Shown here: piece by piece, positions 43,872 through 52,783 of the stretch
Numbering within the stretch: position 1 is the stretch's first letter
Layout: the number at the start of each line of letters is the position of its first letter
Source of the DNA: Octopus vulgaris
Lineage: Eukaryota
Length of the DNA stretch: 64,000 nt
Reading direction: 5' to 3'
Assembly (NCBI GenBank): GCA_951406725.2
Contig: OX597824.1
Span: 25,358,001 to 25,422,000 of the forward strand
Made by a program: the position numbers and the translations under genes
The notes under the pieces: generated by a model
Seen by the model: only the letters and a program-made list of their open reading frames with translations
Databases searched by the model: none
Told to the model about the DNA's origin: nothing

Positions 43872-45392
43872 TCACAAGACAATGATAAAAAGGAAATGCA
43901 ATTTATGATCGTCTGTCTTCTTGACTATATCCGGGTCTGATCCTTGGTCTCTGCTGTTTATTATTTTTTGGATGATACCCTTGATTGTGCCCTCGATATT
44001 GCTCTGCATTTTGCTCTCCGATGTGCCCAATATTTTACCATTGATTTTGCCCTCGATATTGCTCAGCATTTTGCTCTCCGATGTGCTCAATATTTTAACA
44101 TTGATTTTGCCCTCGATCTTTTTTATTCCCGATGTCTCCGAGATTGTACCATTGATTCTGCCCTGGATATTGCCCTGCATTTCGCTCTCCGAGGTGTACA
44201 AGATTTTAGCATATATCTCTGCATTTTGCTCTTCGGTGATATCTCTCTGCATTTTGCTCTCCGGTGTGTCCAAGGTTTTATCATTGATAGTGACCTTCAT
44301 CTTTTTCAGGACTGCAACCTCATCTCCTGTACCCTCAATTGGGTACAAGATATTTCCCTCCGTATCTCCGAGTTCGAATATGCCCGTTACTGTGCCCGTG
44401 AATGTGCCCTTGATTGTGTCTGTGACGGTCCCTTTGTATTTAAAAGACCTGTTGATTATATCCTTCAGGGCGTCTTTGAGATCTTGATTGCCCTTATTCT
44501 TTAATATCTCCTCCAAAATACTATCTGTAAAATAAGTAAATTCCTCCATATCTTTGACCCTTTCGAAAATTTTCAGGTGTTCATCTGCGGATTTCAAAGC
44601 CTCGCCAAGTAGTTTATTAAGCAGGAGAACAGTTTTGTGTTGGTAAGCCGTGTTATGTAGTCGATATCGTGAATAAAACATATCATAGAAATTTTTAAGC
44701 GTTTTGTCTCTGTAGCATATTTCACCATCTATTACTTTGGACATTTTCATCATTCTTTCGTGATCAAAGGATGTTCCAATGCCAAGAAAATGGGAATCTC
44801 TGGCCAGGTAATCCCATTTATCAACGTCGATGTTATAGTCTGCATTGTTGACGATTTGGTAAAGAAAGTTTGGTCTCTGAGATTTTTCTGGTTTACCAGT
44901 AATGAGATGTTTTATGAAATCAATTTCATCAGACTTAAGTTCTCCTTTAATATGTGGGTTCTTTTTAAAAAGATGCTCCAACATTTTACATGATGCATCT
45001 TCATGTTCCCACTTTTTACCTCCATCTTCCTTGAGATACTCGTTGATAATTTCTTGAAAGGCATGAGAAAAAGGCGCATGTCCTAAATCATGACACAAAC
45101 CAGCGATTTCAACACACAGTATATCTCGATCAGATATTTCCAGACCGGAATCTTGCTGCTTAAGATGGCGAATCATTTTCCCAGCTAGATGACATGTTCC
45201 CAGACAATGCTCAAATCTATTATGTGAAGCTGATGGATAAACGTAATAACACAAACCTAGTTGTTTGATATTACGTAATCTCTGAAATTGTACTGTATTA
45301 ATAATTTTAACACAGAGTGGTGAAAATTGCATGGATCCATGAATAGCGTCCTGAAAAACCTGATCCGGACGTGTATCGTTTGTGTTAGCCAT
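43872..45392 (-). CDS. SAMHD1: Intronless SAMHD1-like HD-domain dNTP triphosphohydrolase, copy 1 (no SAM domain; C-terminus truncated and replaced by 12 element-derived residues)
   Basis: DAIHG, QFQRLRNIKQLG, HNRFEHCLG, GLCHDLGHAPFSH, WEHE, DVDKWDYLARD, RYRLHNTAYQHK. Homology to copy 2 ends at 43910; the DYG..NP..FY / LPEKF tail is missing. Confidence 0.93.
   Translation of the reverse strand: MANTNDTRPDQVFQDAIHGSMQFSPLCVKIINTVQFQRLRNIKQLGLCYYVYPSASHNRFEHCLGTCHLAGKMIRHLKQQDSGLEISDRDILCVEIAGLCHDLGHAPFSHAFQEIINEYLKEDGGKKWEHEDASCKMLEHLFKKNPHIKGELKSDEIDFIKHLITGKPEKSQRPNFLYQIVNNADYNIDVDKWDYLARDSHFLGIGTSFDHERMMKMSKVIDGEICYRDKTLKNFYDMFYSRYRLHNTAYQHKTVLLLNKLLGEALKSADEHLKIFERVKDMEEFTYFTDSILEEILKNKGNQDLKDALKDIINRSFKYKGTVTDTIKGTFTGTVTGIFELGDTEGNILYPIEGTGDEVAVLKKMKVTINDKTLDTPESKMQRDITEEQNAEIYAKILYTSESEMQGNIQGRINGTISETSGIKKIEGKINVKILSTSESKMLSNIEGKINGKILGTSESKMQSNIEGTIKGIIQKIINSRDQGSDPDIVKKTDDHKLHFLFIIVL
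43976..44290 (-). repeat. Coding ~60-bp (20-aa) tandem repeats inside SAMHD1-like copy 1
   Basis: ttgatt(g/t)tgccctcgatattgctc(t/a)gcattttgctctccgatgtgc.caatatttta.ca units at 43981 and 44041, a 51-bp unit at 44101, and degenerate units from 44152; peptide KILxTSESKMQSNIEGxIxG. Confidence 0.9.
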
Positions 45393-45687
45393 TATAAAAT
45401 TGTTAAGAATATATCTAACTTACATTCACTTTGTCGTTTATGTTGCTGGTAGTCGTTTCGTTGCTGTTGTGTTTGTTAGTTTCGTAATGTGGAGTAGAAA
45501 TATAAATTATCCAAATATGTCCAGTTGAATATTTCTAACATTTGATTTGAAATGATCTCAGTCGCATTGGCATGAAATATCTGGTGTTTCAAATAATATA
45601 AGCGATCAGTAAGTCTCTGCGTGGTTGGTAGAAAGAACACGAAATGAACTATGTTGTTTTATGAAAAATCAGCTGACGACTACACCC

Positions 45688-45715
45688 ACTTCCTTATAAC
45701 ACAACTTTCACTTTA
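45688..45715 (-). promoter_or_regulatory. Candidate IRF-binding element + TATA-like + ETS motif upstream of SAMHD1-like copy 1
   Basis: Minus strand TAAAGTGAAAGT-tgtgt-TATAAGGAAGT about 300 bp before the ATG; motif match only. Confidence 0.4.
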
Positions 45716-45756
45716 CATCTTCAACATCACTAGCAATAACATTTAATAATATCGAA

Positions 45757-45807
<51 letters not shown>

Positions 45808-49903: not shown

Positions 49904-49976
<73 letters not shown>

Positions 49977-50440
49977 GTGGGTATAAACACATGAACAAAA
50001 TAAGAATAAACAAAAACAAAAACAAATTACACGAACGTATATAAACAGGAGATACAAATATTACAGGCGTTTCCCCCCCCCCCCCCCATACACAAACACA
50101 CACACACACACTAACTAAACATAGACGCACATAGAGATATACGCATGCGCAAATGAAGACATATACAATAGAAATACAAAATGGTTGACGGTTAGTAAGG
50201 AGAGACACACAAATAAGAAAGAAGAAAGCAAAGGACCACTGCTGCGGTCACAGGAGTGTGACGAAAGAACTCTGGCCGAAATAAGATTAAGATTAATGCA
50301 AAAAATAAATAACGATGAAGCAAAGTAAAACCAAATATATAGTGCGTGTGTTTTTATTAGCTAAACTAGCAAAATGACCATTCCTAAATACAACAATATC
50401 TGTTTCAACACACGATTTCACATCAAAAATCTCGCAAAAT

Positions 50441-50514
<74 letters not shown>

Positions 50515-51116
50515 CACATACATACATACACATACACATATGACTCAATGAGAGGTTATAATTTTTGAATGTAAGAAATACGCGTTAAAAATTAAAGAAA
50601 TCGAAGACATTTATTTGGTAAACAAAGAATATTTCTTATAGAAAAGTAAAAAAAAAAAGTTAAATTAGGAAAAAAATTGTTGTTCGCATATTATTTTTAG
50701 TCTTTGAAGTTTGAAATAGTTTCAATATATTTAAAAAATTTTTAATTCTTACCAAATTTTAAGTAAAGAATAAATGTTTCTCATATGTTTCGAACGTGAC
50801 TCAATGGGAGGATTCAATTTAGAAGTAAGGAAATATATGTTTATTTTTTTTCAAAAATGTTGAGAGTTTCTTAAAAGTAAAAATTTCCCATCAAAAAGTT
50901 CTTTTAATTTAGATAGAGAATATTGTCCATTTAGTATCAATCTTTCAATAGTTTCAATGTATTTTTATAATATTAAAGTTTTATCAAGTTTCATTACTTA
51001 TCTCAATCTGCGTCCATGGTTTTGTTTTCTTTCATTGGTTATAATCAATCTGATTTTTTGTTATTGATTTTTCTCTTGAATGTTGTCTTCGTTGTTTTTT
51101 CTTTTGTTTTCCTTAA

Positions 51117-52783
51117 TTATTTTGTTATTTCAAAACAATGACTGGTTTTCATTTCAAATTTCTCTGGCAGAAAAAGCATATTTTCCAGTTCTTCATGGTT
51201 ATCGTACGTATATTTCCTTTCATTTCTTGTATAGAATGGTATTTTCAATAGTGGGTTATTTTCTTTAGCTCCATAGTCAAAATGGGCTGTGCAGATCACG
51301 TCTGTCGTCTTGACTATATCCGGGTCTGATCCTTGGTCTCTGCTGTTTATTATTGTTTGGATGGTACCCTTGATTGTGCCCTCGATATTGCTCTGCATTT
51401 TGCTCTCCGGTGTGCCCAATATTTTACCCTTGATTGTGCCCTCGATATTGCTCTGCATTTTGCTCTCCGATGTGCTCAATATTTTAACATTGATTTTGCC
51501 CTCGATCTTTTTTTTATTCCCGATGTCTCCGAGATTGTACCATTGATTCTGCCCTGGATATTGCCCTGCATTTCGCTCTCCGAGGTGTACAAGATTTTAG
51601 CATATATCTCTGCATTTTGCTCTTCGGTGATATCTCTCTGCATTTTGCTCTCCGGTGTGTCCAAGGTTTTATCATTGATAGTGACCTTCATCTTTTTCAG
51701 GACTGCAACGTCATCTCCTGTACCCTCAATTGGGTACAAGATATTTCCCTCCGTATCTCCGAGTTCGAATATGCCCGTTACTGTGCCCGTGAATGTGCCC
51801 TTGATTTTGTCTGTGACGGTCCCTTTGTATTTAAAAGACCGGTTGATTATATCCTTCAGGGCGTCTTTGAGATCTTGATTGCCCTCACTATTTAATATCT
51901 CCTCCAAAATACTATCTGTAAAATAAGTAAATTCCTCCATATCTTTGACCCTATCGAAAATTTTCAGTTTTTTATGTGCGGATTTCAAAACATCGCCAAG
52001 TAGTTTATTAAGCAGGAGAACAGTTTTGTGTTGGTAAGCCGTGTTATGTAGTCGATATCGTGAATAAAACATATCATAGAAATTTTTAAGCGTTTTGTCT
52101 CTGTAGCATATTTCGCCATCTATTACTTTGGACATTTTCATCATTCTTTCGTGATCAAAGGATGTTCCAATGCCAAGAAAATGGGAATCTCTGGCCAGGT
52201 AATCCCATTTATCAACGTCGATGTTATAGTCTGCATTGTTGACGATTTGGTAAAGAAATTTTGGTCTCTGAGATTTTTCTGGTTTACCAGTAATGAGATC
52301 TTTTATGAAATCAATTTCACCAGACTTAAGTTCTCCTTCAATATGTTTGTTCTTTTTAAAAAGATGCTGCAACATTTTACATGATGCATCTTCATGTTCC
52401 CACTTTTTACCTCCAGTTTCCTTGCGATACTCGTTGATAATTTCTTGAAAGGCATGAGAAAAAGGCGCATGTCCTAAATCATGACACAAACCAGCGATTT
52501 CAACACACAGTATATCTCGATCAGATATTTCCAGACGGGAATCTTGCTGCTTAAGATGGCGAATCATTTTCCCAGCTAGATGACATGTTCCCAGACAATG
52601 CTCAAATCTATTATGTGAAGCTGATGGATAAACGTAATAACACAAACCTAGTTGTTTGATATTACGTAATCTCTGAAATTGTACTGTATTAATAATTTTA
52701 ACACAGAGTGGTGAAAATTGCATGGATCCATGAATAGCGTCCTGAAAAACCTGATCCGGACGTGTATCGTTTGCGTTAGCCAT
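51117..52783 (-). CDS. SAMHD1: Intronless SAMHD1-like dNTPase, copy 2, full-length but with a 2-bp frameshift in a T8 run (~51508-51515)
   Basis: ORF 52783-51476 (435 aa) continues in a second frame to 51117 with AHFDYGAKENNPLLKIPFY...LPEKF (SAMHD1 C-lobe). Copy 1 has T6 at the same site; correcting gives ~554 aa. Pseudogene or sequencing error. Confidence 0.9.

Follow-up and report, generated by a model that had tools for sequence, protein, structure and literature searches.

We analysed a window of 64,000 nucleotides of Octopus vulgaris genomic DNA (assembly GCA_951406725.2, contig OX597824.1, positions 25,358,001 to 25,422,000), in which two intronless genes resembling the deoxynucleoside triphosphate (dNTP) hydrolase SAMHD1 lie on the minus strand. 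Both are young members of an octopod-specific SAMHD1 array, one branch of which carries an excess of amino-acid changes over silent ones. We regard diversifying selection in the clade that bears a lineage-specific repeat insert as the likely cause of this excess. The fuller reading, that the selection reflects escape from a pathogen antagonist and that the intact copies would be defence enzymes that deplete nucleotides under a changed allosteric control, is one that we favour by a small measure.

The excess was quantified by tree-free counting over six young copies, each allele being counted once. The count was 62 nonsynonymous against 5 synonymous changes, with p-values of 0.002 (kappa 1) and 0.0003 (kappa 2), and the densities were 6.2% at nonsynonymous sites, 1.8% at synonymous sites and 1.45% (28/1925) in the upstream non-coding DNA. 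From these codon statistics were left out two copies identical to others (L002 and L018, identical to L001 and L017), the canonical gene (L023), the broken or partial copies L019, L022, L024/L027, L025/L026 and L028, and small fragments; codons 163-179 of L021 were masked. If redundant young copies simply drifted under relaxed selection and took up tracts from older paralogs, the excess being a by-product, neutrality would predict equal densities, whereas the nonsynonymous density is 4.3 times the upstream one (p 1.5e-11) and the synonymous density stays at the upstream level. The excess persisted at 38:3 (nonsynonymous:synonymous, p 0.005-0.015) after removal of the differences of the window pair that had prompted the analysis, and at 43:3 (p 0.002-0.007) after removal of gap-adjacent codons. 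Drift also fails to account for a sister copy on another contig (C15), which repeats the excess when compared with all young copies (42:3, p 0.002-0.009); the fixed stem differences in this comparison are 14:16. The ratio of nonsynonymous to synonymous substitution rates (omega) in the one-ratio model M0 is 4.4 for the young clade.

The changes cluster in codons 119-177, 222-224, 263-281 and 297-315, and codon 123 shows 5 different residues among the 6 copies. The variable codons miss the substrate-binding residues and avoid deeply conserved positions, only 9 of the 43 falling within the 173 of 311 positions conserved among 47 non-cephalopod homologues (p 8e-7).

The window pair itself agrees with the preliminary description of this DNA, which had reported two intronless SAMHD1-like open reading frames (ORFs), about 28 amino-acid against about 2 synonymous differences, and few differences upstream. 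Both ORFs consist of a single exon and have a Pfam HD-domain hit; against the PDB, copy 1 hits SAMHD1 structures with an E-value of 5e-76. Within codons 1-424 there are 21 codons with amino-acid differences, accounting for 24 nonsynonymous bases, and 2 with silent ones (codons 223 and 315); the 3' repeat part adds 7 base changes, all residue-changing in the frame of copy 1 when read by eye, for a total of 28. The upstream non-coding DNA differs in 14 of 1925 unmasked columns. Taken alone, the pair is borderline against neutrality in a binomial test (p 0.063 at kappa 1, 0.029 at kappa 2), and its nonsynonymous density differs from the upstream density with p 0.0004. The features of the pair are as follows (window coordinates).

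43872..45392, minus strand: copy 1 (L001), intronless SAMHD1-like ORF of 506 amino acids; the final ~12 codons come from flanking DNA past a deletion
51476..52783, minus strand: copy 2 (L003), intronless SAMHD1-like ORF of 435 amino acids, ending early after a frameshift
51117..51458, minus strand: out-of-frame C-terminal ORF of copy 2, 113 amino acids, identical to the end of the intact copy L006
49049..51298, minus strand: C-terminal codons and 3' flank of copy 2, the segment missing from copy 1
43905..43915, unstranded: junction of the ~2.25 kb deletion in copy 1, with 5-base microhomology; the 3' flank and ~60 conserved codons at the C-terminus are lost with it
51508..51515, unstranded: 8-base homopolymer of copy 2, by which the frame is lost at codon ~425; the run is 6 or 9 bases long in copies that stay in frame
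43976..44420, minus strand: lineage-specific insert of copy 1, ~170 codons, with 60-nt (20-aa) tandem repeats at 43976-44212
44448..44504, minus strand: variable patch, codons 297-315 (~human 431-451)
44550..44606, minus strand: variable patch, codons 263-281, with 11 nonsynonymous changes and no synonymous one in the six young copies
44862..45038, minus strand: main variable patch, codons 119-177, where tracts shared with the older paralogs L009, L011 and L016 also lie
45054..45056, minus strand: codon 113, Gln at the position of the human catalytic relay residue D218
45297..45299, minus strand: codon 32, Asn at the position of the human allosteric-site residue D137
45393..48523, unstranded: non-coding upstream part of the duplicated unit, which served as neutral yardstick
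51299..55898, unstranded: the duplicated 4.6 kb unit in its second occurrence, at 96.5% identity to 43910-48523

Older paralogs have donated tracts to the young copies by gene conversion. In the stretch of codons 134-166, L004 and L021 lie 1% from the old copy L016, and L001 lies 3% from L009, most other windows being 8-19% apart. Conversion from an old pseudogene had been named in the preliminary description as an origin that could undo the argument from selection, and neutral drift draws support here, the tracts being significant and the private alleles of the young clade not being so on their own. The composition of the changes speaks otherwise. Imports from older paralogs would carry 20-35% silent changes in the variable windows, and a simulated null of neutrality with conversion from the real donors gave 23-34% silent changes against 6.5% observed, a fraction that none of the six settings reached in more than 1 of its 600 runs. 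Relaxed selection is therefore largely refuted as the source of the excess, and we hold it to be improbable.

Site-model tests had been suggested in the preliminary description. The likelihood-ratio tests M1a/M2a, M7/M8 and M8a/M8 were run in our own code and gave twice the log-likelihood difference (2dL) of 72-74, and failed calibration: of 59 null simulations on mosaic trees with hot and cold segments, 92% passed M1a/M2a, one of them at 72.9. They were discarded as evidence, and the per-site posterior list was left unused for the same reason. The highest M0 omega in the 59 null simulations was 1.41, compared with 4.4 in the data. A count of 17:0 over codons 421-552 was likewise set aside, as it is distorted by misaligned repeat units and frameshifted copies.

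Several observations weigh against diversifying selection or narrow its reach. In addition to the failed site-model calibration, the codon models were purpose-written and not those of codeml or HyPhy. The private alleles of the young clade number 19:2 after realignment (20:4 with a misaligned indel) and do not reach significance (p 0.08-0.15), and 36 nonsynonymous alleles are also present in older paralogs. Changes in the C15 copy at several highly conserved sites point to a degree of relaxation. Omega over all 17 analysed copies is 0.51, and in the variable windows it is ~1.0-1.15 family-wide, as drift in those windows would have it. Finally, 6 of the 7 young copies are broken in this assembly, only L006 being intact, a point in favour of relaxed selection. 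The older subclades are under purifying selection, with an omega of 0.33 in the older catalytic copies and 0.43 in a metal-site-dead subclade; the excess is therefore confined to the insert-bearing clade. The rapid diversification first proposed thus holds for the young copies, for their held-out subset and for the C15 copy, and does not hold when all paralogs are taken together.

Both window copies are damaged near the 3' ends of their genes, by a deletion in copy 1 and a frameshift in copy 2 that the preliminary description had overlooked. In copy 1 homology is lost at 43910, and the last ~60 conserved residues are gone; a transposon insertion was considered as the cause of this truncation and dropped, the junction fitting a microhomology deletion. 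Contigs from 4 of 4 other public runs pass 43910 into an intact C-terminus, and an in-frame contig across the homopolymer of copy 2 was found in 4 of 4 runs, one of which also holds a second, ambiguous contig of lower depth without a listed indel. Such contigs are evidence of presence and not of absence, and they indicate that the breaks in the window copies are recent, private or assembly errors. Three intact young-clade entries come from O. sinensis (534, 555 and 574 aa) and vary in how many 20-aa repeats they contain; two of them are labelled as isoforms.

These breaks raise the question of whether part of the young array represents two uncollapsed haplotypes placed in tandem, with the differences or breaks being errors. 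A 14.8 kb block (window 38493-53210) is repeated 58.4 kb downstream at 98.6% identity, a possible sign of an uncollapsed haplotype; L001 and L002 do not differ across codons 1-424; and two of the breaks share one homopolymer at which the contigs of other runs are in frame. Contigs from independent runs, however, show the same substitutions, as do proteins of O. sinensis. Sequencing error, which the preliminary description had raised as a possible objection, is a poor explanation of the differences because, among the variants listed for other runs (the 40 best-supported rows in each listing), 28 of 38 and 20 of 30 coincide with alleles of the young copies. Collapse of the haplotypes would cut the young copies from 7 to ~4, yet the 62:5 count would stay as allelic diversity. 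An assembly artefact of this kind is therefore highly improbable as an account of the excess.

The size of the family bears out the expansion first proposed. The genome search gave 44 matches, comprising 21 near-full-length copies on the contig of the window (C11, 24.96-25.48 Mb), a single copy on C15, a divergent gene on C20, and fragments. With this divergent gene as query, a second search gave 38 matches and nothing beyond the first set. The family thus consists of an intronless octopod-specific clade of ~22 copies and one canonical gene. The canonical orthologue (L023, C20:8877280-8878632) is a single ORF of 451 aa, lacks the SAM domain and keeps D137 and D218. No multi-exon SAMHD1 parent was present among the 44 and 38 genome matches, although short exons can escape such a search. 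Since all copies, the canonical one included, are intronless in the coding sequence, retroposition from a parent is not demonstrable, and the 'retroposed-type' origin in the preliminary description is unproven. A 1654-nt contig from a probable RNA run is colinear with the single-exon coding sequence. Contigs of the small public runs span the gene and end some 300-320 nt 5' of the ATG, where a large run continues; their common stop is a weak hint of the transcript start.

A quick tree built from 53 proteins places the expanded copies together with O. sinensis and O. bimaculoides sequences and two Argonauta proteins in one long-stemmed branch (Shimodaira-Hasegawa-like approximate likelihood-ratio support, SH-aLRT, of 100), and the C20 gene groups with a different Argonauta protein. 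Nested duplications with a spacing of 7 to 73 kb surround the young copies, and recent segmental duplications are nested in the window (38493-53210 and 40001-41264/62738-64000). Among the homologues there were long SAMHD1-like proteins in fish (P0010, P0017, P0019 and P0021, the last with two HD motifs) and several bivalve (Mercenaria, Mya) and Myripristis entries, with multiple SAMHD1-like paralogs in bivalves, which suggests independent SAMHD1 expansions in other aquatic animals.

The model of the intact copy L006 (predicted local distance difference test score, pLDDT, 82) presents the SAMHD1 catalytic-core fold including the C-terminal sheet, with SAMHD1 as top Foldseek and VIA matches and a Z of 44.4 against human SAMHD1 (root-mean-square deviation 3.2 A over 402 residues). 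It aligns to human residues 113-557 only. No Pfam match to an N-terminal SAM domain was obtained for the window proteins, and, because the model ends at ~human 555-557, the protein is without the T592 region or the Vpx-binding tail. The metal ligands H167, H206, D207 and D311 are present in all young copies, which are also invariant at R164, H210, H215, H233, Y315, R366, Y374 and Q375; R352 and K354 are conserved. The claim that the catalytic motifs are untouched is thus correct in that they are the same in both window copies, but not in relation to canonical SAMHD1, from which they depart at D137N and D218Q.

The first departure lies in allosteric site 1 (K116, D137, Q142, R145, R451, K455), in which the young clade has D137N and K116Q and keeps the other four residues; N119Q is a further allosteric change. 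Asn replaces D137 in 18 of 18 expanded copies tabulated, with Q142 and R145 kept. The same Asn was seen in the Argonauta canonical gene and in 5 of the 47 non-cephalopod rows, so that D137N is not unique. In human SAMHD1 the same substitution shifts activation from guanosine triphosphate (GTP) to xanthosine triphosphate (XTP), according to the available portions of two reports (PMC7311409, PMC10711556). At the second departure, the acidic relay residue D218 is Gln in the young clade, a residue found in 0 of 47 non-cephalopod rows, all 47 of which have D or E. The human D218A variant shows a ~40-fold decrease in kcat, so D218Q may mean a weak enzyme, a point against catalysis as the main function.

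We lean slightly towards the intact copies acting as defence enzymes. They would be dNTP hydrolases, probably slower ones on account of D218Q and less reliant on GTP on account of D137N. Unequal crossing-over would create and lose copies in a process of birth and death, conversion would shuffle the variable patches between subclades, and the selecting agent would be a DNA virus, a retroelement or an intracellular parasite protein that binds these patches.

Selection could also be real and non-immune, tuning the proteins for nucleotide metabolism or for a tissue-specific role, e.g. in skin mucus or senescence. The rewired allosteric residues (K116Q, N119Q, D137N) would suit such tuning, as would the SAMHD1-named proteins (identified by name and not by copy) of O. 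vulgaris skin mucus, which change with captivity and senescence in the part of the study available (PMC11431876). On the other hand, the changes are not on substrate-binding residues, and repeated multi-allelic charge changes at non-conserved sites, as at codon 123, fit conflict better than a one-off tuning. We consider a non-immune cause quite improbable.

A different function under real selection may be suggested by an older subclade of five intact copies (L012, L013, L015, L017 and L018; C11 24.98-25.20 Mb), in which D207N converts HD into HN, H215Y is present and H233 is lost; 4 of the 5 also have D311N. This metal-site-dead subclade is under purifying selection (p 8e-5 for its omega given above) and has counterparts in O. 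sinensis and O. bimaculoides, three Octopus species thus sharing it (P0006, P0007). It is a candidate pseudo-enzyme or decoy. By extension, the proteins might mainly be baits or sensors and not dNTPases, the variable surfaces and the insert binding pathogen proteins or nucleic acids and the dead copies soaking up antagonists or tuning mixed tetramers. The constrained dead copies support this possibility, together with the relay change to Gln that has no match in the non-cephalopod rows; the young clade, however, keeps the four metal ligands and the eight further invariant residues listed above. We judge it unlikely that binding, rather than catalysis, is what the array is mainly for.

In a second older subclade (L009, L011 and L016), two base-contacting positions are changed (Y374C, Q375K) and G151S-type changes lie close to the active site; at the level of residues, these suggest an altered substrate preference. 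This subclade has tracts in common with the young clade.

The insert occupies ~173 residues in the young clade in place of human ~459-499 and is confined to this clade, the C15 copy and O. sinensis. In the L006 model it is predicted to form long beta strands, residues 339-406 being of low confidence. No Pfam or Atlas match to the insert was found, and among 1100 candidates only Octopus relatives were recovered; a beta-barrel structural match with a Z of 7.6 is within background. Its first part is near-invariant among the young copies (3:0 over codons 326-424). Positive selection on mammalian SAMHD1 clusters in residues 456-502 and 550-599, as far as the available text of PMC6744909 goes. The insert site lies inside the 456-502 cluster, and this lobe (456-502, 550-599) is replaced or missing in the octopus copies.

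The octopus proteins share with human and mammalian SAMHD1 (PDB 7UJN, 6TX0) the HD-domain fold, the metal ligands and most substrate residues. They differ in lacking the SAM domain and the T592/Vpx-binding tail, in the ~22 intronless copies and the 170-aa insert, and in the residues D137N, D218Q, K116Q and N119Q. In mammals, across which positive selection on SAMHD1 has been described (PMC6744909, in the same available text), the selected sites lie at the termini, unlike the HD-lobe patches of octopus. Engineered human D137N-SAMHD1, which is activated by XTP, resembles the octopus proteins in having Asn137 with Q142 and R145 kept; in octopus the Asn is natural and is combined with K116Q and N119Q, the likeness being drawn from sequence. 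SAMHD1 of the fungus Rhizophagus irregularis (PDB 9MR6; PMC12042053) is also SAM-less and without T592, with altered allosteric and dimer residues (Z 43.8). It keeps the D137 equivalent (D34), and the portion of that report available describes no expansion, insert or dead paralogs.

Lentiviral Vpx and Vpr are known antagonists of mammalian SAMHD1. APOBEC3, IFITM, TRIM5 and Mx form birth-and-death arrays of restriction factors with gene conversion and demonstrated viral targets. The octopus array resembles them in its tandem copies, pseudogenes, mosaic variable surfaces and rate of nonsynonymous above synonymous change; it differs in belonging to another protein family, and any targets that it has are putative. 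Among invertebrates, over-representation of a SAMHD1 transcript marked one disease-resistant oyster family, as stated in the accessible part of PMC6971885.

The window also contains other elements. A microsatellite-rich non-coding element at 42744-43918 and 48459-49639, present in inverted and direct copies, flanks the genes on their 3' side. A tandem array of 152-nt units (97-99% identity) at 5900-7630 overlaps the end of an ORF (7260-7769) that we take to be of the long interspersed nuclear element (LINE) type and that has only a weak Pfam match to DUF6451. Transposon remnants lie at 12730-13161 (a Tc5/CENP-B DNA-binding domain), 15645-15977 (a Pif1 helicase 2B domain) and 27049-28019 (a mariner-type DDE fragment). 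An ORF at 31154-31576 on the minus strand, with a weak chitin-binding peritrophin-A match (E 0.002, below the curated cut-off), is possibly an exon of an unrelated gene.

Expanded, fast-evolving arrays of immune genes are already known, and the octopus SAMHD1 array is apparently undescribed in the literature searched: no report of SAMHD1 expansion or selection in octopus was found in the literature on SAMHD1 in octopus and cephalopods and on broader topics, in which subscription journals were thinly covered, and one proteomics paper merely lists the protein. It can be imagined, although we find it unlikely in this full form, that octopus SAMHD1 has become a diversified immune array, in which active members would respond to a xanthine-type (deaminated-purine) activator through the natural D137N, with a new beta-repeat domain replacing the regulatory lobe, beside conserved dead decoys for pathogen antagonists. 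The family offers a direct bench test for a natural allosteric rewiring, since D137N was previously known as an engineered XTP switch in the available text of the reports cited above, as well as for a new inserted domain and conserved dead paralogs. A signature of conflict in octopus would extend defence by dNTP depletion to an invertebrate whose antiviral immunity is poorly known, and would point to the presence of an antagonist.

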